From the NCBI GenBank assembly GCA_017466725.1, contig JAFTTP010000002.1, positions 67,492 through 131,491 on the forward strand: a DNA stretch of 64,000 bases, written 5' to 3'. The DNA is from Clostridia bacterium. Its GTDB lineage: Bacteria > Bacillota > Clostridia > Christensenellales > UBA1242. Shown here one piece after another: positions 1,667 to 49,632 of the stretch; positions within the stretch are counted from its first letter, which is position 1, and the number at the start of each line of letters is the position of its first letter. The translations under genes and the position numbers were made by a program. Under the pieces are notes generated by a model that was given only the letters and a program-made list of their open reading frames with translations, had not been told where the DNA came from and ran no database searches.

Positions 1667-4198
1667 TTGGCAAATCAATCATTACAAAATTTAAAAAGAA
1701 TTCACGAACTTCAACGAGAAGGGGAGATTTCTAGACTTTTGCAAAACCTTAAAAACTCTAAGGTGAGCGTTGAGGATCTTGGCAAAAACATTTCAAAGAG
1801 ATTGAAAGAAATTGACTTTGAGATTGCTCAAAAGGAGGCTGCTAAGAAATTGCAAGAGGAGCAAGCAGCACAAGAGGCTGCCAAAAACGAAATAGTGGAA
1901 GAGAAAAAACCTACCACTAATTTTGTTGCATCACAAAACAACAATACGTTTAGAAAGTTTAATAACGAGCAAAGACCTATGCGTAATGATGGCCAAAACA
2001 GAGGACCAAGATTTGACGGTAACCGCAATTTTGATAATCGTAACGGCGACCGAAATAATAGACCAAATAATAATTTCAACAGAGATAGATTACCAAACAA
2101 TAATAGACCAAACTTTAACACTCGTCCAAACGATCCACGAGCACCACACAAGTTTGGAAACAACAATTTTGTACAATCAAAAGCAAACAAATTTAAATCG
2201 TTTGCAAGCAACGATGTAATTGAAATTGATGTTAAAAATGACAGAAATTATGAGACAAAGGCTCGTAATACTCAAAAGCATAATACATCATATGACGAAA
2301 AGAAGTCTCAGAACAAACGTAGAGACGATCAAAGACGCAACAATGTGTTTATTGAGGATGAAAACGGGTTTGAAGAAATTTCTTTTGGTTCTAAAAAGAG
2401 CGTAAAGAAAAAGAAAGAACTTTCAGAAAAGCAAATTACAAGCATAACACATGCAGTTATCACAGCAAAAGAAATTACGGTAAAAGATTTCAGCGAAAAG
2501 ATTGGCAAACCTGTTACTGAAATTGTTAAAAAGTTGATGCTTTTAGGTATCATGGCAACAATCAACTCAAACATTGACTATGATACTGCAGAACTTGTTG
2601 CAAGCGATTTTGGTATTACTTTAGAATTAAAACAAGATAAGTCTTATGAAGAAAAAATGATTGAATCTGCTGAACAAGTGGATGATGAAAGTGCTTTGGT
2701 TAAGAGGGCGCCAATCGTTGCTGTTATGGGACACGTTGACCATGGCAAGACATCACTTCTTGATGCATTTAGAAAAACAAATGTTGTTTTGGGTGAAGCC
2801 GGCGGTATTACTCAAAGCATTGGTGCATATCAAATTGAATTCAATGGCGAGAAAATTACTTTCATTGATACACCTGGACACGCAGCATTTACTCAAATGC
2901 GTGCTAGAGGCGCAAAGGCAACAGATATTGCAATTTTAGTTGTTGCTGCAGACGATGGTGTTATGCCTCAAACAATTGAAGCAATCAACCATATTAAAGC
3001 TGCTCAGGTGCCTATTATTGTGGCAATTAATAAAATGGATAAGCCAGAGGCAAATCCAGATAGAATTAAGCAGCAACTTGCTGAACACAACATTCTCCCT
3101 GAAGAGTGGGGTGGTGACGCTATTTGCGTTCCAATTTCAGCAAAGACAGGCATGGGACTTGACGACCTCAAACAAACCATTTTACTTGTCAGTGAAATGA
3201 GCGAGCTTAAAGCAAATCCAAATAAAATGGCAACAGCAGTTGTTATTGAGGCAGAACTTGACAAAAATAGAGGTCCCGTTGCATCAGTTATTGTTCAAAA
3301 TGGTACTCTTCATGTTGGCGATTCCATCATGTCAGGTATTACCTATGGTAAGGTTAGGGCAATGTTCAATGATCAAGGCAAGCCTATCAAATCTGCACCT
3401 CCTTCAACGCCAGTTGAAATTTTAGGATTCAACGAAGTTCCAGTTTCTGGTGATGAGGTTTATGCTGTTGAAGAAACGCTTTCTAAGCAGGTAATTCAAG
3501 AAAGAATTGATCGCATAAAGAAAGAACGTGCAGCACAATCTTCTGGAGTAACCTTAGACAACTTTATGAACAGAGTACAAGAAGGCACACTTAAAAACCT
3601 TAATGTAATTGTTAAGACAGATACAATGGGCTCTGTAGAGGCGCTTAAATCAACACTGCTTGCAATTAGAAATGAGGAGGCAAAAGTAAATATTGTTCAC
3701 TCGGGCGCTGGCGCTGTTACTGAGAGTGATGTAATCCTTGCACAAACTACTGGCTCAGTAATTATTTGCTTTAATCAAAAACCAGTTGCCAAGGCAAAGA
3801 CATTGGCAGAAAACCTTAAAATTGAAATCAAAGAATATAAAATCATCTATGAAATCGTTGACGATATTACGGCAGTTATCAATGGCATGCTCAGTATTAA
3901 ATATGAAGAAGTATATATTGGAAGTGCTGAAATTAGAGTTGTATTTAAACTTTCAACTGCAGGAAAAATTGCAGGAAGTTATGTAAAAGACGGTAAAGTT
4001 ACAAGAAATGCTATTGCCGTAGTAAAACGTGGCAACGAGGAGATTGGCAGAACAACAGTTGAATCTCTTAAAATCGTTAAGGATGAAAAAGCCGAAGTTG
4101 CAAAAGGTTATGAATGCGGCGTAAAACTTAAAGATAATATAGACTTTAAAGAAGAGGATATTATCGAATTCTATTCAAAGGTTGCAATTAAACGATAA
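1667..4198 (+). CDS. infB: Translation initiation factor IF-2
   Basis: 843 aa with a TTG start after GGAG. G-domain motifs VMGHVDHGKTSLLD, DTPGH, NKMD. N-terminal low-complexity region. Confidence 0.97.
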   Translation: MANQSLQNLKRIHELQREGEISRLLQNLKNSKVSVEDLGKNISKRLKEIDFEIAQKEAAKKLQEEQAAQEAAKNEIVEEKKPTTNFVASQNNNTFRKFNNEQRPMRNDGQNRGPRFDGNRNFDNRNGDRNNRPNNNFNRDRLPNNNRPNFNTRPNDPRAPHKFGNNNFVQSKANKFKSFASNDVIEIDVKNDRNYETKARNTQKHNTSYDEKKSQNKRRDDQRRNNVFIEDENGFEEISFGSKKSVKKKKELSEKQITSITHAVITAKEITVKDFSEKIGKPVTEIVKKLMLLGIMATINSNIDYDTAELVASDFGITLELKQDKSYEEKMIESAEQVDDESALVKRAPIVAVMGHVDHGKTSLLDAFRKTNVVLGEAGGITQSIGAYQIEFNGEKITFIDTPGHAAFTQMRARGAKATDIAILVVAADDGVMPQTIEAINHIKAAQVPIIVAINKMDKPEANPDRIKQQLAEHNILPEEWGGDAICVPISAKTGMGLDDLKQTILLVSEMSELKANPNKMATAVVIEAELDKNRGPVASVIVQNGTLHVGDSIMSGITYGKVRAMFNDQGKPIKSAPPSTPVEILGFNEVPVSGDEVYAVEETLSKQVIQERIDRIKKERAAQSSGVTLDNFMNRVQEGTLKNLNVIVKTDTMGSVEALKSTLLAIRNEEAKVNIVHSGAGAVTESDVILAQTTGSVIICFNQKPVAKAKTLAENLKIEIKEYKIIYEIVDDITAVINGMLSIKYEEVYIGSAEIRVVFKLSTAGKIAGSYVKDGKVTRNAIAVVKRGNEEIGRTTVESLKIVKDEKAEVAKGYECGVKLKDNIDFKEEDIIEFYSKVAIKR

Positions 4199-8008: not shown

Positions 8009-8031
8009 ACGCATTTTATTATCTTTTGACT

Positions 8032-8062
8032 ATATTTGTCGCTTTATCATTTTGCATTACAT
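8032..8062 (+). promoter_or_regulatory. Possible sigma-E-type promoter for spoIIIA operon
   Basis: ATATTT (8032-8037), 17 nt, CATTACAT (8055-8062). Loosely resembles -35 ATATT / -10 CATACA-T. Confidence 0.25.
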
Positions 8063-8091
8063 CGCATCATAGGCTAAGACAGGAGATGGAA

Positions 8092-9000
8092 ATGTTAAAA
8101 AAAATTCTGCCCAGCAATTTATACAACATAATTCAAAATAAGGTCAACTTTAATTATATAAATGAAATCCGTTTGCGAGAGGACAAGCCTATTGTTGTAT
8201 CAATTGGCGGGCAACGTATATTTCTTGGCGAAAACGGTGTAACAGGAAAACTTAAAGATGCAATTATTGCCTCCAAAATCACTATTGAAGATATCATATT
8301 TCGTGCAAGCGAGTGCTCGCTTTATTCAGTAAACGAACAAATTAAAAAAGGATTTATAATCACCAGTGGCGGCATTCGTATTGGGATTGGAGGCGATATA
8401 GTTGAAGAAAAAGGCGTCATAAAAACCATGACAAATTTTAGCAGTATAAATATAAGGCTGCCCCATGAAATTAAAAATTGCAGCTTACCGGCATTTAAAT
8501 TTTTAATAAACGAACAAATGATATATAACACTCTTGTCATTAGTCCGCCCGGGGCGGGTAAAACAACATTTTTGCGTGATTTTATTTGGCAACTATCTGA
8601 ACGCAATTATGCTTATAATGTTCTGGTGCTTGATGAGCGAGGTGAACTTGATTTAGGCACGAAAGGAGTGCTTGGCAATTTTGCCGATAAAATTTCGTTT
8701 GCCAGCAAAAAAGTGGGGTTTGAAAATGGTATTCGCTCACTTTCACCAAACCTTATTGTTACTGACGAACTTGGCACAAAAGAAGACGTAGACGCAATTA
8801 TGTATGCTGTAAATTCTGGCGTCTCGTTGCTTGCATCAGTGCATAGCGACAGCATAGAAAACTTTTGCATGAAACCTCAATTTGAACGTGTTGTAGAAAA
8901 TAGGGTGTTTCAACGATTTGTACTTCTGTCTATGAGAAACGGTCCTGGTACAATTGAAGGGGTTTACAATGAAAATTTTTCACGGTTAAGGGGGATGTAA
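8092..9000 (+). CDS. spoIIIAA: Stage III sporulation protein AA (ATPase)
   Basis: Walker A SPPGAGKTT. First gene of an eight-gene spoIIIA-ordered cluster. The ATG at 8086/8092 after AGGAG is preferred over the ORF-track start at 8026. Confidence 0.88.
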   Translation: MLKKILPSNLYNIIQNKVNFNYINEIRLREDKPIVVSIGGQRIFLGENGVTGKLKDAIIASKITIEDIIFRASECSLYSVNEQIKKGFIITSGGIRIGIGGDIVEEKGVIKTMTNFSSINIRLPHEIKNCSLPAFKFLINEQMIYNTLVISPPGAGKTTFLRDFIWQLSERNYAYNVLVLDERGELDLGTKGVLGNFADKISFASKKVGFENGIRSLSPNLIVTDELGTKEDVDAIMYAVNSGVSLLASVHSDSIENFCMKPQFERVVENRVFQRFVLLSMRNGPGTIEGVYNENFSRLRGM

Positions 9001-9001
9001 A

Positions 9002-9496
9002 ATGAAAATTTTTCTTATTGCAATTTTGTGCGGAATTTCAATTTTTATAGGCTTTCGCTTTTCAAAAAAATATCGACAAAGGCAGCAATTTTTTCAAGCC
9101 ATTGTCATGTTGTGCCAAAAATTTGATGTTGAAATGAATTATTCCAAAGAGCGCATTAAAAACATCATCACCAATCTCGATGAAAAACACAAAGGCAGAC
9201 TTTTTGGACTTGATAGCAACTTCATTTCCTTTTTAAATCAAGAGGAAGAATTAAGCAAAGAACTTTTATTTAAAAACATACAATTTTTGAAGGCCGAAGA
9301 AAAAGACCTCTTATTTATGTTTTTTAAATCTCTCGGCCGTAGCGATTTGGACAGCCAGTCTAAAGAAATTAAAAACTTTCTTTCTCGATTTGATGACATT
9401 TTACACACATGTGAAGGTGAGAACAAAAAGTATGGCTCGTTGTCTGTTAAACTCGGCTTTATTGCAAGTCTATTTGTTATAATACTGTTCTTGTAG
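9002..9496 (+). CDS. spoIIIAB: Stage III sporulation protein AB
   Basis: 164 aa with an N-terminal TM. Size and position are typical of spoIIIAB. Confidence 0.8.
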   Translation: MKIFLIAILCGISIFIGFRFSKKYRQRQQFFQAIVMLCQKFDVEMNYSKERIKNIITNLDEKHKGRLFGLDSNFISFLNQEEELSKELLFKNIQFLKAEEKDLLFMFFKSLGRSDLDSQSKEIKNFLSRFDDILHTCEGENKKYGSLSVKLGFIASLFVIILFL

Positions 9497-9500
9497 GTGG

Positions 9501-9698
9501 ATGATGGGCATTGAAATTATATTTAAAATAACCGCAATTGGACTTTTGACTGCAATTTTAGGGCAAATTTTAAAGCAGATGGGCAAAGATGAAATATCTA
9601 CTATTACAACAGTTGCAGGCTTTGTTGTGGTAATCATTATGGTGTTAAATTTAATAAGTGACCTGTATAGCACCTTTCAAACAATTTTTAATTTATAG
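9501..9698 (+). CDS. spoIIIAC: Stage III sporulation protein AC
   Basis: 65-aa two-TM protein in the third position of the operon. Confidence 0.8.
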   Translation: MMGIEIIFKITAIGLLTAILGQILKQMGKDEISTITTVAGFVVVIIMVLNLISDLYSTFQTIFNL

Positions 9699-9704
9699 AG
9701 GGTT

Positions 9705-10097
9705 ATGGAAATAATTTTAAAAATAGTAGCTATTGGCATCATAACGTGCGTTGCAACAATTTTAATAAAGCCAATTAGAAATGATTTTTCAATTTTTATT
9801 GCAATTGCCGGCGGCCTGATTATCATTTTTATGATAATCAACTATTTAACCGGAATTTTTGCCACTTTCAGTACCCTTGTTAACGCCACTGGATTAAACG
9901 GCGGAATTTATACATTTCTAATAAAGATTATTGGAATAGGGTATTTAATTGAATTCACCGCAGGAATATGCTCAGATACTGGTAATGCATCACTTGGCGA
10001 CAAGGTTTTATTAGGCGGCAAAATTGTTGTTATGGTTATGTCTCTGCCAATTGTTATTAACATTTTAAAAATTATTATGGACATTTTACCAACATGA
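9705..10097 (+). CDS. spoIIIAD: Stage III sporulation protein AD
   Basis: 130-aa polytopic membrane protein in the fourth position. Overlaps the next gene by ATGA. Confidence 0.8.
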   Translation: MEIILKIVAIGIITCVATILIKPIRNDFSIFIAIAGGLIIIFMIINYLTGIFATFSTLVNATGLNGGIYTFLIKIIGIGYLIEFTAGICSDTGNASLGDKVLLGGKIVVMVMSLPIVINILKIIMDILPT

Positions 10098-11284
10098 AAA
10101 GAACCTTAAGCATACTACTGCTGCCAATATTGTTCATCGCCATACTCTCAACCGCAAATCAAACAAACTTTTTTGCCTATGCTGCAGAAGATGTTGTTGA
10201 AGATGAACTTGAAGATGAAGTATTTTCTCAGCTTGACGACTTAGATTTTTCTGACTTAGATAAAATTTTAGAAGATTTTACGTGTAATCAGTCATCTATA
10301 TTCGGGGGAAGTAGTTTTCTTGACAAGTTGAAACAACTTCTTCACGGCGAATTTGAGGGTGGACAAGGCGTAATAGAGAGTATAATCAAAATAGTTTTTG
10401 ATAGTTTTCTAAATCTTTTACCGACGCTTTCAATCATAATCGCAATTTCATTGGTGGGAAACTTAATTCAAGGTATAAAACCAACGAGCAACGGCAAATC
10501 TCTGTCAAATATCATCCATTTTGTTATATATGGCGTTGTCGTGGTGCTTGTACTATCAATTATAGTCAAAATGATAGCACTTGCTACAGCCACTTTAACA
10601 TCTCTTCAGGGACAAATGAACGCCATCTTCCCAGTTTTACTTACATTGCTTACTGCAGTAGGTGGAACAAGTTCGGTAAGCGTATATCAACCCGCAATGG
10701 CTCTGCTTTCAAATGGTATACTCAACCTTTTCACATATGTTCTGCTTCCAGTTTTCATATTCTCTGTAGTATTTTCTGTCATTTCAAACCTATCAAACAC
10801 TGTAAAGTTGGATAAATTTTCAAGTTTTTGCAATAGCACTTTTAAATGGGTTATAGGCTTTGTATTTACAGTGTTTACTGCATTTCTATCGCTGCAAGGC
10901 ATAACTGCAGGCTCGTTTGATGGAATTTCAATTCGCACAGCAAAATATGCAATCCGTTCTTACGTGCCAATGCTAGGCGGATATTTAAGTGATGGCATGG
11001 GGCTGATTTTAGCCTCATCAAATTTGATAAAAAACGCTGTTGGTGCGGCAGGATTATTCATGATGCTCGCCTCAATTTTATCACCACTTATTGAAATGAT
11101 ACTCTTTATGTTGGCGCTTAAAATGATTGCAGGCATCATAGAGCCTTTAGGTAACAAACAAATTGCCAATTTTATTTCATCTTTATCAAAATGTATGGTG
11201 CTTTTAATTGTAATTTTAATTGGTGTCGCCTTTGTTTATTTCATTTTAATGGGGCTTGTTATATGCAGCGCAAATGTTGTTTAA
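10094..11284 (+). CDS. spoIIIAE: Stage III sporulation protein AE
   Basis: 396-aa protein with a signal peptide, an acidic region and multiple TMs. Size and position match spoIIIAE. Confidence 0.82.
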   Translation: MKRTLSILLLPILFIAILSTANQTNFFAYAAEDVVEDELEDEVFSQLDDLDFSDLDKILEDFTCNQSSIFGGSSFLDKLKQLLHGEFEGGQGVIESIIKIVFDSFLNLLPTLSIIIAISLVGNLIQGIKPTSNGKSLSNIIHFVIYGVVVVLVLSIIVKMIALATATLTSLQGQMNAIFPVLLTLLTAVGGTSSVSVYQPAMALLSNGILNLFTYVLLPVFIFSVVFSVISNLSNTVKLDKFSSFCNSTFKWVIGFVFTVFTAFLSLQGITAGSFDGISIRTAKYAIRSYVPMLGGYLSDGMGLILASSNLIKNAVGAAGLFMMLASILSPLIEMILFMLALKMIAGIIEPLGNKQIANFISSLSKCMVLLIVILIGVAFVYFILMGLVICSANVV

Positions 11285-11294
11285 AGGAGGGGGC

Positions 11295-11795
11295 GTGTCG
11301 GCTGTTTCATCATGGATACTATCAATTGCTGGTGTAGTGTGCCTATCTGTACTGATTGAACTTGTTTTACCAGATGGTCAAATGAATAGGTATATAAAAG
11401 GGACTTTTTCCTTTGTAATCGTATTAGTCATCATCTCGCCAATACCAAAACTTTTAAACAGTAATTATGATGTTTCAAAACTATTCAACTACGACGAAAC
11501 CTATATGCTTGATGAAAATTATTTATATCAATTAAACCTTAATAAACTAAATAAATTGCAAGAAGACGTTACCGCTGAGGCATATTCAAACGGATATAAA
11601 AATGTAAAAGTATACATTGATGCAGACATCTTTGACAGCCACTTAAACATTTCGTCTGTTTATGTCGATTTATCTGAATTAGTCATAAGCCAAAATGCTG
11701 AGCATAGAGATATAACGAAGATAAAACAACATATTACAAATTTGGTACAACAATTTATCGAAATTGATGAGGAGAAGATTTCATATGGCAATTAA
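11295..11795 (+). CDS. spoIIIAF: Stage III sporulation protein AF
   Basis: ORF 11256..11795. A GTG at 11295 after AAGGAGGGGG is the likely start. Two N-terminal TMs. Confidence 0.75.
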   Translation: MSAVSSWILSIAGVVCLSVLIELVLPDGQMNRYIKGTFSFVIVLVIISPIPKLLNSNYDVSKLFNYDETYMLDENYLYQLNLNKLNKLQEDVTAEAYSNGYKNVKVYIDADIFDSHLNISSVYVDLSELVISQNAEHRDITKIKQHITNLVQQFIEIDEEKISYGN

Positions 11796-12318
11796 TTTCA
11801 AAGAAAAATTTAAAATTTTATATGAAAAAATTAAAAAGATAAAGTATTTCTATCTGTATTTGGCAATAGGGATTGGCATAATTTTAGTCGGAATTTATTT
11901 GACTTGCATCCCAAAAGCAAAGGGCGATGGTTTAAACAAAAACATCGACAAAAATCTCACAGAAATTTCTTCTTCAGCGGAATACGTAGAATATTTAGAG
12001 AATAAACTTGAAAGTGTAATAGGTGCTTTAAACGGTGTAAACAGCGTTGAAGTTGCCATCACTCTGGAAAAAGGGTTTGAATATGTCTATCAAACTGAAA
12101 CCGAAACGCGTACATCTTCTGGTGGGACAAGCATAACAACCACAACAGTTGTATATGTTGATGGACAACCAGTAATTGTTGAAGAAATCTTTCCTACAGT
12201 TAAAGGCGTTGCGGTTGTAGCGCAAGGGCTAAACGATGTCTCTGTGCGGCTCAACATCATCAGCCTTATTCAAACTATGGTAGATGTAGATACTTCGCAG
12301 ATAAAAGTTATGGAATAA
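11785..12318 (+). CDS. spoIIIAG: Stage III sporulation protein AG
   Basis: ORF 11764..12318, with an ATG at 11785 after GAGGAG. One TM plus a soluble ring-building-motif-like domain. Confidence 0.75.
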   Translation: MAINFKEKFKILYEKIKKIKYFYLYLAIGIGIILVGIYLTCIPKAKGDGLNKNIDKNLTEISSSAEYVEYLENKLESVIGALNGVNSVEVAITLEKGFEYVYQTETETRTSSGGTSITTTTVVYVDGQPVIVEEIFPTVKGVAVVAQGLNDVSVRLNIISLIQTMVDVDTSQIKVME

Positions 12319-12334
12319 ATAAAAGGGGTGTAAA

Positions 12335-12808
12335 ATGAAAAAAAGAACAAAAATGATTATTATCACAGCTATGGTGTTGCTGTTGGGGGTTACTGGCTAT
12401 CTTAACATCATGCTTAACAACTCTGTATCAGATGGCAACATCAATGCAACCACAACAACTGCCAGCTATTTCTCTACGTATCGCTCAACTAGAGAATCTA
12501 CTCGCGACCAAGAGCTGCTTTACTATGATGCAATCATCTCAAACGAGGCTTCAACCGCTGACGCCATTGCCAACGCAGAAAGTTTAAAATTGTCACTTAT
12601 TGCGCAAATGGAACACGAACTAGTTATTGAAGGGCTTATTAAAGCAAAGGGTTTTGAAGACTGTATTGTTTCAATTCTTGATGAAAATGTAAACGCAGTT
12701 GTTAAGGCAAAAGAGCTTACTTCAAGTGAAGTTGCACAAATTTTGTCAGTAATTCAATCACAATTAAACACAAGTTTAGAAAATGTTACAATTATTCCGG
12801 TAGAATAA
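12335..12808 (+). CDS. spoIIIAH: Stage III sporulation protein AH
   Basis: 157 aa with an N-terminal TM. Last gene of the cluster. Confidence 0.75.
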   Translation: MKKRTKMIIITAMVLLLGVTGYLNIMLNNSVSDGNINATTTTASYFSTYRSTRESTRDQELLYYDAIISNEASTADAIANAESLKLSLIAQMEHELVIEGLIKAKGFEDCIVSILDENVNAVVKAKELTSSEVAQILSVIQSQLNTSLENVTIIPVE

Positions 12809-45932: not shown

Positions 45933-46985
45933 CTATTTTTCTGATTTTTTTCTTTTTAAACTAGAAACAAACGCAAAAGTCAACAAACCCGCCAGCAATA
46001 TCATCACAATAATCAAACTTGTTCCGCCTCGACTTCTTGATTCAGTTTTTTCTGTTGTAATTTGATTTTCAATAAATTCCTCTTCTGTAACCACCTCTTT
46101 TTCAGGATCATAATAATCTGCATACATAGTTGTTTCAATGGAATCTACCAAATAAGGTACACTATTGTAAACAAAATCCTTCTCAATAAGGTAAGTCCCC
46201 ATTTCAAAAAGCAAATTTGTATTCATAAGAGATTGATTATAATGCCCCTTACCACAATAAATGTCTAAAAACAGCCATGGATACAACTGATTGCCAACAG
46301 CAAAAAGTTCTTGTGCAAATTTATAGTTTTCTTCAAAATTAGGGTTAGATTTTCCGACAACAATCCTTATTTTGCTAAAATCTTGCCCATTGTGACTGGT
46401 ATGATAATACTTTTTGGCAACGCCATCCCTATGAATATCAAACAGTGCGTCCGGCTTTTCCTCTTGATAAAGCGCTTTAGCTGTAACGGCAGAACGAGAA
46501 TACGCACTCGAATCATGCGGAATATGCAGCGATTCATCTAAAACAACCTTTATTCCACGCTTTTCAAGCTCGCTTTTCAGCCTCTTTGCAACATCATGAA
46601 TGCCCCCAGCACCATAAATGCTGTCATAACCATCTGTAGGCGTATAACTTTCATCATTGTGCGTCATATATAAACACAGCTTTTTCGCTAGCCCCGCCGA
46701 CCGCTGTCCTCTAAACTTGTCTGGTTTTGGCCAATTAAGAGTGCGAAAGTATCGAGCATAGCATTTATGCCCATCAATCTCGTAAATTTGATATTCATGA
46801 AAATCCTTTGTTAAAATGGTGTCACCAACCTCCGCCTCGCTGGTAAATGTAAGCAACTCGCCACTTTCGTCATAAATTTCATATTCAATAATCTCACCAT
46901 CAATAGCATAAGCAACCATTTCATTGGGCATAAAAACGCAAACAAGCGCCATCAAAACAATAAAAAAACACATCAACTTTTTCAT
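45933..46985 (-). CDS. spoIIP: Stage II sporulation protein P
   Basis: 350 aa with a signal/TM region. LYMTHNDESY...GGIHDVAKRLKSELEKRGIKV...HD..AY..S...DIHRDG, characteristic of SpoIIP. Confidence 0.85.
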   Translation of the reverse strand: MKKLMCFFIVLMALVCVFMPNEMVAYAIDGEIIEYEIYDESGELLTFTSEAEVGDTILTKDFHEYQIYEIDGHKCYARYFRTLNWPKPDKFRGQRSAGLAKKLCLYMTHNDESYTPTDGYDSIYGAGGIHDVAKRLKSELEKRGIKVVLDESLHIPHDSSAYSRSAVTAKALYQEEKPDALFDIHRDGVAKKYYHTSHNGQDFSKIRIVVGKSNPNFEENYKFAQELFAVGNQLYPWLFLDIYCGKGHYNQSLMNTNLLFEMGTYLIEKDFVYNSVPYLVDSIETTMYADYYDPEKEVVTEEEFIENQITTEKTESRSRGGTSLIIVMILLAGLLTFAFVSSLKRKKSEK

Positions 46986-47274: not shown

Positions 47275-47793
47275 TTAACTATTTTCTAATTCATCTTGAT
47301 TGCCTTCACTCTCAATCAACTCACATTCATATGCTAAAAAGTTAAACAATCGCATAAATAAAGATTCCACTCTTGGCACTCTGCTGCCACTATTACAAAA
47401 ACATATGTTACTTCCGCGATGAAAAGACGTCCAAGCTTTTTCATTAGTGTTAGCAATAAATTTTATGGTAAACAAGTCATCTTCTTTTATAATCCGCAAG
47501 GTATTCGCTTCTTCTTCCGGCCAATCTTCACTGATAAAAGTTATTATATTACCATCTAATACTGGCAAATATTTATCATCAACCTTTTTAATAGCGTCAA
47601 ATAATTGACTAAACACGCTAAATGCTATTTTATCAGTATTATCCAATTCAAAAATTGTATTTTCTTTATAATCTTCGGGTATCCAGTATAGGTCAAAATT
47701 ACCACCAACCGTCATAATAAATGACTTTCCACGCCTATCAACTAACTTTACATCATAATATCCCTGTTTGCCTCTTGGTTGTTTTGTAATCAT
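47275..47793 (-). CDS. Hypothetical 172-aa protein
   Basis: ATG at 47793 after AGGGAGAA. The ORF-track N-terminal extension to 47919 is read-through of the tRNA gene. I recognise no family. Confidence 0.6.
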   Translation of the reverse strand: MITKQPRGKQGYYDVKLVDRRGKSFIMTVGGNFDLYWIPEDYKENTIFELDNTDKIAFSVFSQLFDAIKKVDDKYLPVLDGNIITFISEDWPEEEANTLRIIKEDDLFTIKFIANTNEKAWTSFHRGSNICFCNSGSRVPRVESLFMRLFNFLAYECELIESEGNQDELENS

Positions 47794-47835
47794 CCCATTC
47801 TCCCTATAAATAAAAAAACAGGATAACTCCTGCTT

Positions 47836-47917
47836 TGGTGCGGGCGGTGGGAGTCGAACCCACACGGTTTCCCACTTGCCCCTTAAACAAGCGCGTCTGC
47901 CATTCCGCCACGCCCGC
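47836..47917 (-). tRNA. tRNA-Leu, class II, apparent anticodon AAG, encoded CCA
   Basis: 82 nt. Acceptor GCGGGCG/CGCCCGC. D arm GCG-GAAUGGCAGA-CGC. Anticodon stem CUUGU/GCAAG with loop UUAAGGG. 11-nt variable region. T arm GUGGG-UUCGACU-CCCAC, then ACCA. Confidence 0.85.
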
Positions 47918-47939: not shown

Positions 47940-47969
47940 ATTATATTTATATATCACATCATTGTCAAG
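47940..47969 (-). promoter_or_regulatory. Candidate sigma-A promoter for tRNA-Leu
   Basis: On the minus strand: TTGACA (47969-47964), 18 nt, TATAAT (47945-47940). Lies about 20 nt upstream of the tRNA 5' end. Confidence 0.6.
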
Positions 47970-48015: not shown

Positions 48016-48312
48016 CTAACGCCCTTTATCTTCTTTGTTAAATTCAGTTAATCCTTTTTCAAACATATCTTTGCTTTCAGGGTCAAGCATAAATATTAGG
48101 CCCATCAATTGACCCACATGCACTTTTTCTTCTTTTGCAATATCTTTTATCGCGTTCTTAGCCGATTCATCATTTGTTTGCATTAAATGATTTTCATATT
48201 GAATGATTGCTTCAAGTTCGCCAACAACATCCATTCGCGCATTTTGCAAAGTTGTAAAATTGTTGCTACTTTTGTTGGCAGAATTGTCTAATATGTTAAA
48301 AAATCCTTTCAT
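48016..48312 (-). CDS. Small ferritin-like (EncFtn/rubrerythrin-like) protein
   Basis: 98 aa from the ATG at 48312 after AGAGGGGGA. GELEAIIQYENH ... KEEKVHVGQL resembles the E-x-x-Y / EEKxH diiron ligands of encapsulated-ferritin-type proteins. Confidence 0.6.
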   Translation of the reverse strand: MKGFFNILDNSANKSSNNFTTLQNARMDVVGELEAIIQYENHLMQTNDESAKNAIKDIAKEEKVHVGQLMGLIFMLDPESKDMFEKGLTEFNKEDKGR

Positions 48313-48369: not shown

Positions 48370-49632
48370 TTAACAAACCTCTTTCTTTTCTTGTTTTTTA
48401 TATATCACTTCTGGTTGCACGTCGTCTTGTTCAATAAATTCCTTTGTTACAATAATCTTCTGCACATCCATCCAACTTGGTGCCTCATACATAAGTTTAG
48501 TCATTTTGGACTCAATAATTGTTCTAAGCCCCCTTGCACCCGTTTTAAGTTCCATGGCTTTCTTGGCGATTGCCTTAACTGCATCTTCAGTGAAGTCAAT
48601 TTCCATTTCATCAATTTTAAACATAAGTTTATATTGTTTTACAATTGAATTCTTTGGCTTTGTCAAAATTTGTACCAAAGCATCTTCGTCAAGTTCGTCC
48701 AAGCCAACCACAACTGGAAGTCTACCAATAAACTCTGGGATAAGGCCAAACTTAATTAAATCGTTAGGCTGTATTTCTTTAGCATAGTTTTTCTTCACCT
48801 CTTCTTCGCTTGCACGAATATGAGCATTAAAACCAAGTGAAGTATCGTTTTTGCGAGTTTCAATAATTTTATCAAGCCCAACAAATGCACCACCGCAAAT
48901 AAAGAGAATGTTTGTTGTATCAATTTGAATCATCTCTTGTTGAGGATGCTTTCTGCCGCCTTGTGGTGGAACAGATGCAACAGTACTTTCTAAAATTTTC
49001 AACAATGCCTGTTGAACACCTTCCCCCGCAACATCACGCGTGATTGAAACATTTTGTGTTTTCTTTGCAATTTTGTCAATTTCGTCGATGTAAATTATTC
49101 CACGCTGAGCCTTTTCGATGTCATAGTCGGCATTTTGAATAAGTTTAAGCAAAATGTTTTCTACGTCATCACCAACATATCCCGCCTCAGTAAGTGTAGT
49201 TGCATCACATGACGCAAATGGCACTTTAAGCGCTTTAGCAAGTGTTTTTGCAAGCAACGTTTTGCCCGAACCTGTTGCACCAACCATAAGAATATTACTT
49301 TTTTCAAGTTCAACCTCATCGGTATTATGCTCTACTGTTTTAAGTAAGTTATAGTTTAAGCGTTTATAGTGATTATAAACGGCAACGGCAAGCACCCTTT
49401 TTGCTTCATCTTGACCTATAATATACTCATCAAGTTTTTCTTTTATTTCTTTTGGCGAAGGCAAATCAATCTTCTCGAAAGTCGACCTTTTTATATTCTC
49501 TGCCATGATGTCTTTGCAAATTGCTACGCATTCATCGCAAATATACGCCTCTCCTCCCGGACTTGCAATAAGTTTTTTTGCTTCTTTTTCACTTTTACCG
49601 CAAAAACTACACTTGCATACAAAATCGCTCAT
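48370..49632 (-). CDS. clpX: ATP-dependent Clp protease ATP-binding subunit ClpX
   Basis: Zn-binding CSFCGK...CDEC, Walker [17 protein letters not shown]. Confidence 0.97.

Follow-up and report, generated by a model that had tools for sequence, protein, structure and literature searches.

A conserved tRNA-Leu gene with the anticodon AAG downstream of clpX in a Clostridia lineage

The spread of wobble inosine from a single tRNA, tRNA-Arg, to several tRNAs is a hallmark of eukaryotes. To our knowledge, no first step of such an expansion other than tRNA-Leu(AAG) has been documented in bacteria. This tRNA has been studied so far in one order, the Lactobacillales, with a broader specificity of TadA, additional mRNA editing and genome-wide shifts in leucine codon usage. 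This tRNA is the best-known exception to the rule that bacteria have A34 only in tRNA-Arg(ACG). It was reported in Leuconostoc and Oenococcus as well as in "some Firmicutes", and all Streptococcaceae and Lactobacillaceae are said to have it; nearly all bacterial genes encoding it belong to the class Bacilli (Katanski et al., 2026). Inosine at position 34 (I34) was found in this tRNA in O. oeni, in S. mutans and oral streptococci, and in S. pyogenes, in which its formation requires TadA. TadA edits the tRNA-Leu(AAG) of S. pyogenes completely, both in vivo and in vitro, the TadA of S. pneumoniae edits tRNA-Leu(AAG) in vitro, and the modification in S. mutans was seen by tRNA-seq. E. coli TadA does not edit this tRNA, whereas S. 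pyogenes TadA does so with the consensus YUAMGRA (positions 32-38). With respect to decoding, tRNA-Leu(IAG) is equally fast on CUU and CUC, whereas tRNA-Leu(GAG) is about 10-fold faster on CUC. The papers on Leu-AAG covered here, whose surveys are based on cultured, complete genomes, do not mention Clostridia. An earlier note on the DNA analyzed here had called A34 outside tRNA-Arg(ACG) rare in bacteria, in agreement with this literature, which confines Leu-AAG to a minority of lineages.

ARAGORN detected one tRNA in the whole 64-kb window (the window being the entire stretch of DNA that was analyzed): a tRNA-Leu with the anticodon aag at position 34. The gene is located at 47836..47917 on the minus strand, is 82 nt long and encodes the CCA end. 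The anticodon A34-A35-G36 was read from the sequence at 47882..47884 (minus strand), with A34 corresponding to window base 47884. The earlier note had proposed a tRNA-Leu with an AAG anticodon at identical coordinates, and Rfam RF00005 detects the same interval with 50.7 bits (E = 6.5e-08, gathering threshold 29). In the Rfam alignment the 7-nt anticodon loop is UUAAGGG (U32-U33-A34-A35-G36-G37-G38), so no other register is supported; a register giving the anticodon UAA or UAG was excluded by the covariance-model alignment. Thus, neither an alternative register nor a score at pseudogene level was seen. The first half of the RNA reads GCGGGCG-UG-GCGG-AAUGGCAGA-CGC-G-CUUGU-UUAAGGG-GCAAG and is directly followed by the second half, -UGGGAAACCGU-GUGGG-UUCGACU-CCCAC-CGCCCGC-A-CCA (linear and standard numbering are the same as far as position 43). 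All stems, the loop, the T arm, G37 and the CCA end listed previously were found in the sequence: the acceptor stem GCGGGCG/CGCCCGC, the anticodon stem CUUGU/GCAAG, which includes a U31-G39 wobble pair, and the T arm GUGGG-UUCGACU-CCCAC; G18-G19 and the discriminator A73 are present as well.

The variable region comprises 11 nt (U GG GAAA CC GU) and forms two pairs, 45-52 and 46-51. This is short for a class II tRNA, but the same length is found in related tRNA-Leu(GAG) genes. An extra arm with a stem, a 3-bp D stem, G18-G19, A73 and an anticodon of the NAG/NAA type are all present, as expected for a class II tRNA-Leu. A73, the class II architecture and the homology to tRNA-Leu(GAG) suggest that the tRNA is charged with leucine by LeuRS. 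A serine identity was ruled out by the A73 discriminator, and a tyrosine identity by the AAG anticodon together with the homology to tRNA-Leu(GAG). The gene almost certainly encodes a true and functional tRNA-Leu whose A34 is genomic, and it should be kept in the annotation as tRNA-Leu(AAG), without a pseudogene flag.

The closest described system is the tRNA-Leu(AAG) of the Lactobacillales. There too the tRNA belongs to class II, A34 and G37 are encoded in the genome and the core of the loop is Y32-U33-A34-A35-G36-G37; the gene is likewise fixed throughout the clade, in low-GC hosts with heavy use of CUU. The acceptor stem and T arm of the O. oeni gene are near-identical to those of the window tRNA. 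The O. oeni sequence used for comparison was taken from the attL site of Oenococcus phage phiS13 (KF183315.1; positions 1-84 of locus L229), where the tRNA-Leu(AAG) of O. oeni is the prophage attachment site. However, the two systems differ in several respects. The window tRNA, at 82 nt, is shorter than that of S. pyogenes (89 nt) and that of O. oeni (84 nt without CCA), and its variable region has 11 nt instead of the 15 nt in O. oeni. G38 and the U31-G39 pair are replaced by A38 and A31-U39 in O. oeni, which also differs in D-loop length and anticodon stem and does not encode the CCA end. The Lactobacillales are Bacilli, in contrast to the Clostridia host, a likely spore-former, with the tig-clpP-clpX gene order found here. 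Moreover, I34 and an adapted TadA were demonstrated in Lactobacillales, whereas both are predicted for the window lineage, and the absence of tRNA-Leu(GAG) was also shown in the Lactobacillales.

To identify relatives, one genome per GTDB species was scanned with the ClpX encoded next to the tRNA, resulting in 15 loci with ClpX proteins 78-89% identical to that of the window. In 13 of these 15 closest species-level genomes the same 82-nt tRNA-Leu(aag), identical or near-identical in sequence, is encoded roughly 0.4-1.2 kb downstream of clpX. The two non-carriers are loci at which the contig ends: in L010 it stops 341 nt past clpX, and in L008 fragments of the tRNA are found at the contig end. 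The order tig-clpP-clpX-p98-tRNA, where p98 denotes a 98-aa open reading frame, is kept in L001-L019 and in the metagenome loci L107 and L160, and part of this context is present in the metagenome loci L143 and L154. In the more distant L107 (ClpX 75% identical) the synteny GAPDH-tig-clpP-clpX-tRNA is retained, and the tRNA also has A34. The earlier note had regarded routine occurrence of Leu-AAG in close relatives as an argument against its reading. In one sense such occurrence was observed, since the gene is present at every intact locus among the closest species-level genomes; this argues for function and makes the gene a trait of the clade instead of a special feature of one genome.

Within the close-relative loci, no change was seen from position 5 to position 44, a stretch that comprises A34 and the complete D and anticodon arms. 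A34 is constant in the aligned A34 sequences (14 in alignment A1), while the stems vary. The variable-arm pairs 45-52 and 46-51 alternate between GG/CC, CC/GG, UC/GA and GA/UC, and G-C is replaced by A-U at the acceptor pairs 3-70 and 4-69. After addition of metagenome relatives (18 sequences), 99.7% of the cells of the cloverleaf were paired and 11 of 22 pairs had changed on both sides, with covariation in four of the five helices. None of 500 shuffles matched the observed covariation, and no slid register came close. At the sequence level, these data show that the gene is fixed across the clade and under purifying selection.

Upstream of the gene a sigma-70-type promoter, TTGACA-17 nt-TATAAT, was found at 47940..47968 (minus strand), matching the consensus at 12 of 12 positions; the end of the -10 hexamer is located 22 nt from the mature 5' end of the tRNA. 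Nearly all related loci have cTTGACA and TATAAT at an equal distance, although the surrounding sequence has diverged. Directly after the CCA end, the terminator scan detected a hairpin resembling an intrinsic terminator, CAGGA-GUUA-UCCUG, with a T run behind it (47805..47836, minus strand). In most relatives the tRNA is also followed by a hairpin and a T run, with differing sequences. The match to the consensus and its conservation indicate that the tRNA gene is probably transcribed independently, and strongly so. Taken together, the conserved gene, the compensatory changes and the flanking signals point to a stand-alone, selected tRNA that is probably strongly transcribed. That the gene is a pseudogene, or its A34 an assembly or sequencing artefact, is a reading to which we assign next to no probability: nothing but the rarity of the anticodon favours it, the same base is present in assemblies that were made independently in different studies and from different hosts, and the Rfam score well over the threshold, the compensatory substitutions and the conserved promoter and terminator argue against a pseudogene. 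The earlier note's view that this is not a pseudogene is in line with the clade-wide conservation, the compensatory changes and the conserved transcription signals.

An exact-protein look-up located the window on a gut-metagenome scaffold of 157.6 kb (ENA ERZ28653984, scaffold_149, positions 67369-131368). The synteny is anchored upstream of the tRNA by clpX (48370-49632, minus strand) and p98 (48016-48312, minus strand), neither of which has a functional link to the tRNA. In the close relatives checked, p98 is present between clpX and the tRNA; its only matches are sub-threshold ones to EncFtn-like and COQ7 (ferritin-like) families. On the other flank lies a 172-aa open reading frame (47275-47793, minus strand) without a Pfam match, in which none of the 13 leucine codons is CTT. 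The left flank beyond the window (frr, uppS, cdsA, rseP, rimP, nusA) contains nothing relevant to the tRNA, and exact look-ups of two proteins at the right edge returned no record. Two sporulation markers are encoded in the window, a SpoIIP gene (45933-46985, minus strand) and a complete spoIIIAA-AH operon (8026-12808, plus strand). The closest ClpX loci are all labelled Clostridia or Clostridiales, except for L019, labelled "uncultured Firmicutes bacterium". The next-closest ClpX proteins (at most 68% identity) include those of Candidatus Onthoplasma (Christensenellales), Ca. Caccovivens, Ca. Scatosoma and Ca. Gallimonas; the lineages of Onthoplasma, Caccovivens and Scatosoma were looked up and all belong to the class Clostridia, and the nearest named genera are placed in Christensenellales or Clostridia incertae sedis. 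The ClpX neighbours, the sporulation genes (spoIIIA operon and SpoIIP) and the tig-clpP-clpX order speak for a Clostridia host and not for a member of the Lactobacillales or other Bacilli. The host, with a low GC content of about 36%, is thus an uncultured lineage of gut Clostridia that is likely to form spores.

To compare the gene with similar tRNAs, metagenomes were scanned with a pattern that fixed the D arm and the U31/G39 frame and allowed either purine (R) at position 34. The matches listed (at least 81) included 70 genes with G34 and 11 with A34, all with the same D arm and loop; these are counts and not frequencies. The G34 genes, tRNA-Leu(GAG) from gut and environmental sources (among them L111, L185, L164, L117/L186 and L095, the last from IMG/VR), resemble the window tRNA in length, D arm, the loop U32-U33-N34-A35-G36-G37-G38, the U31-G39 pair, the 11-nt variable region and the encoded CCA, and are identical to A34 genes at 64-73 of 82 positions. 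In contrast to the latter they have G34 and represent the standard bacterial way of reading CUU, via G-U wobble. Among the matches listed, A34 is present on at least four backbones, represented by L160, L143 and L154 (the window type), L112/L174, L107/L124/L180 and L172/L113/L157. The contigs of the A34 genes listed have a GC content of 29-38%, their named sources are human-gut metagenomes, and each gene is alone on its contig.

These similarities suggest how the gene could have originated. Among the matches listed, L172 (A34) is identical to L111 and L185 (both G34) at 73 of 82 positions, and L107 (A34) has the anticodon stem CACGU/GCGUG and the T loop UUCAAGU of G34 genes. This is the pattern expected of a local transition from G34 to A, and the gene may have arisen by such a transition in the 82-nt tRNA-Leu(GAG) common in gut Clostridia. 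The window tRNA itself matches the O. oeni tRNA-Leu(AAG) in 69 of 84 aligned columns and the nearest G34 gene among the matches listed at 68 of 82 positions. Since the similarity to O. oeni is no lower than that to the nearest G34 gene, a local G34-to-A origin within Clostridia is favoured, but not proven. We lean slightly towards a broader form of this proposal, in which A34 tRNAs for leucine originated in uncultured gut Clostridia, separately from those of the Lactobacillales, by G34-to-A changes in short tRNA-Leu(GAG) genes, spanning several backbones and lineages.

Horizontal acquisition, for instance from Lactobacillales or via a phage or integrative element, would account for the almost identical acceptor stem and T arm of the O. 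oeni tRNA-Leu(AAG). In addition, tRNA-Leu genes can act as phage attachment sites, as shown by attL of Oenococcus phage phiS13, tRNA arrays of phages in IMG/VR include tRNA-Leu(aag), and fragments of the tRNA 3' end are part of a tandem repeat in L008. Several observations nevertheless make such a transfer very unlikely. The position of the tRNA after clpX is stable in at least 14 species-level genomes and in L107, and the annotation of open reading frames and Pfam domains around the tRNA showed no integrase-like gene among its neighbours. The window tRNA and the G34 genes from gut metagenomes have in common the D-loop length, an 11-nt variable region, U31-G39 and G38, whereas the AAG tRNAs of O. 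oeni and phages have a longer variable arm and A38. Finally, L107, which is the deepest of the A34 genes in this synteny, shares its anticodon stem and T loop with the G34 family.

The locus L008 (CAMLSW010000009.1; ClpX 80% identical) contains no intact tRNA-Leu after clpX and the 98-aa open reading frame. Instead, a 131-nt unit is repeated in tandem at 8123-8376 (1.9 copies, 95% identical) up to the end of the contig, and each unit contains the reverse complement of the last 18 nt of the tRNA (TGGTGCGGGCGGTGGGAG) and a T-arm-like piece, GTGGGTTCGAC. The repeat could be an attachment-site duplication caused by an integrative element, or it could reflect an assembly break; a low-threshold Rfam scan of L008 gave a sub-threshold match to rli61 and nothing else. 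As for the viral contigs of IMG/VR with large tRNA arrays, tRNA-Leu(aag) with the loop CUAAGGA is encoded at 13319-13404 of L089 and 226-309 of L096. Genes for tRNA-Pro(agg) are present in IMG/VR contigs at 6690-6767 of L085, 3607-3684 of L087 and 12869-12944 of L089. In a preprint (10.64898/2026.05.15.725136), ANN tRNAs of four-codon boxes are said to be absent from bacteriophages.

In the window, CTT makes up 41% of the 1,662 leucine codons. The share of CTT rises to 69-83% in tig, clpP, efp and gap, compared to 0-29% in spoIIP and the 172-aa open reading frame next to the tRNA, showing that CUU is the preferred, expression-linked leucine codon in housekeeping genes. CUC makes up about 4% of the leucine codons and 8% of CUY, corresponding to a CUU:CUC ratio of 11 to 1. 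The earlier note had reported frequent CTT in highly expressed genes and linked it to an A34 or I34 decoder. The frequency is borne out by these shares; as a specific sign of A34 it does not hold, since CTT/(CTT+CTC) is 0.92 compared to 0.90 for GTY, TCY and CCY, and G34 contigs of similar GC content show a similar bias (0.81). Many low-GC relatives are equally CUU-rich. In two A34 lineages on metagenome contigs, L113 and L172 (backbone GCUGGUG...), CUC accounts for 35-38% of CUY, compared to 8% in the window clade; codon usage thus varies widely among A34 carriers. Codon usage was consequently dropped as evidence for either A34 or I34, the CUY bias being equal to that of other four-codon boxes and of G34 contigs. 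With regard to arginine, CGA represents 19% of CGN in the window and CGG is rare, which fits decoding by tRNA-Arg(ICG), though indirectly.

The canonical substrate of TadA is tRNA-Arg(ACG), converted to ICG, which serves as the model of how bacteria put an A34 tRNA to use. Like the window tRNA it has a genomic A34 flanked by U33 and G36, but its loop is YUACGAA, whereas the window tRNA has A35, G37 and G38. Compared to the consensus of S. pyogenes TadA, YUAMGRA, the loop UUAAGGG fits at six of seven positions, position 38 being G instead of A, although this consensus may not transfer to other lineages. In the proposed mechanism, the resident TadA would deaminate A34 to inosine after transcription, as in Oenococcus and Streptococcus, and TrmD would methylate G37 to m1G, as in other readers of CUN codons. 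With IAG as its mature anticodon, the tRNA would decode CUU and CUC and could decode CUA as well, making it the predicted major CUU reader; the likely benefit would be faster reading of the dominant CUU codon. The cytidine/adenosine-deaminase motif [HC]AE...PCxxC, used to look for tadA, has no match in an open frame within the 64-kb window, and in 230 loci (1.9 Mb) it gave two matches; the frames concerned have a mere 69 aa each and do not resemble deaminases.

A functional tRNA could also retain an unmodified A34, which would form a Watson-Crick pair in decoding CUU and might weakly serve other CUN codons, with tRNAs carrying UAG, CAG and perhaps GAG covering the rest. For other amino acids this state was shown experimentally, in Mycoplasma tRNA-Thr(AGU) and in the O. 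oeni tRNA-Thr(AGU) and tRNA-Ser(AGA), which like the window tRNA serve four-codon boxes in low-GC Bacillota; these and the Thr-tRNA(AGU) of Mollicutes are precedents. We know of no reported example of an unmodified A34 in a tRNA-Leu. E. coli TadA does not accept tRNA-Leu(AAG) and the streptococcal enzyme is broadened, so editing cannot be assumed for an unrelated lineage. Furthermore, G38 deviates from the YUAMGRA motif, a CUU:CUC ratio of 11 to 1 suits an A34 reader, and the rarity of CUC in the clade implies little demand that would require inosine. Against this, all bacterial tRNA-Leu(AAG) tested to date have I34, and the core UAAG motif and a pyrimidine at position 32 are present. The related A34 lineages L113 and L172 use CUC heavily and would need a competent CUC reader, which counts for I34. 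The preference for CUU over CUC is no stronger than that for U over C in the Val, Ser and Pro boxes and therefore says little about the state of A34. Weighing these points, we consider an unmodified A34 unlikely and conversion to I34 in the window tRNA probable. For the locus as a whole, the best explanation is a main CUU-reading tRNA-Leu that originated by a G34-to-A change and carries inosine made by TadA, which we regard with moderate confidence as correct.

As a phenomenon, tRNA-Leu(AAG) is already known and mechanistically studied. New here are the Clostridia as the host class, the short backbone with G38, and the presence of A34 on several backbones beside near-identical G34 genes. If a separate origin in Clostridia is true, it would imply either a convergent broadening of TadA, towards a loop with A35, G37 and G38, or a main CUU reader in which unmodified A34 is tolerated. 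It would then provide a natural replicate of how inosine decoding expands in bacteria, showing whether TadA specificity, CUU/CUC usage and the loss of tRNA-Leu(GAG) shift together again and whether TadA tolerates G38. Such a replicate would also show whether A34 tRNAs of uncultured lineages are undercounted in surveys of cultured genomes (GtRNAdb).

Two minor observations concern the surroundings of the gene in relatives. In L006 (CAMLUY010000104.1) a tRNA identical to that of the window is encoded at 3355-3436, on the opposite strand relative to clpX, which suggests a local inversion in this species. In L107, at about 10362-10431, the 5' end of the tRNA recurs in degenerate form (GCGAGCGTGGTGAAAT compared to GCGAGCGTGGCGGAAT) approximately 30 nt upstream of the tRNA-Leu(AAG), which may be the remnant of a duplication.
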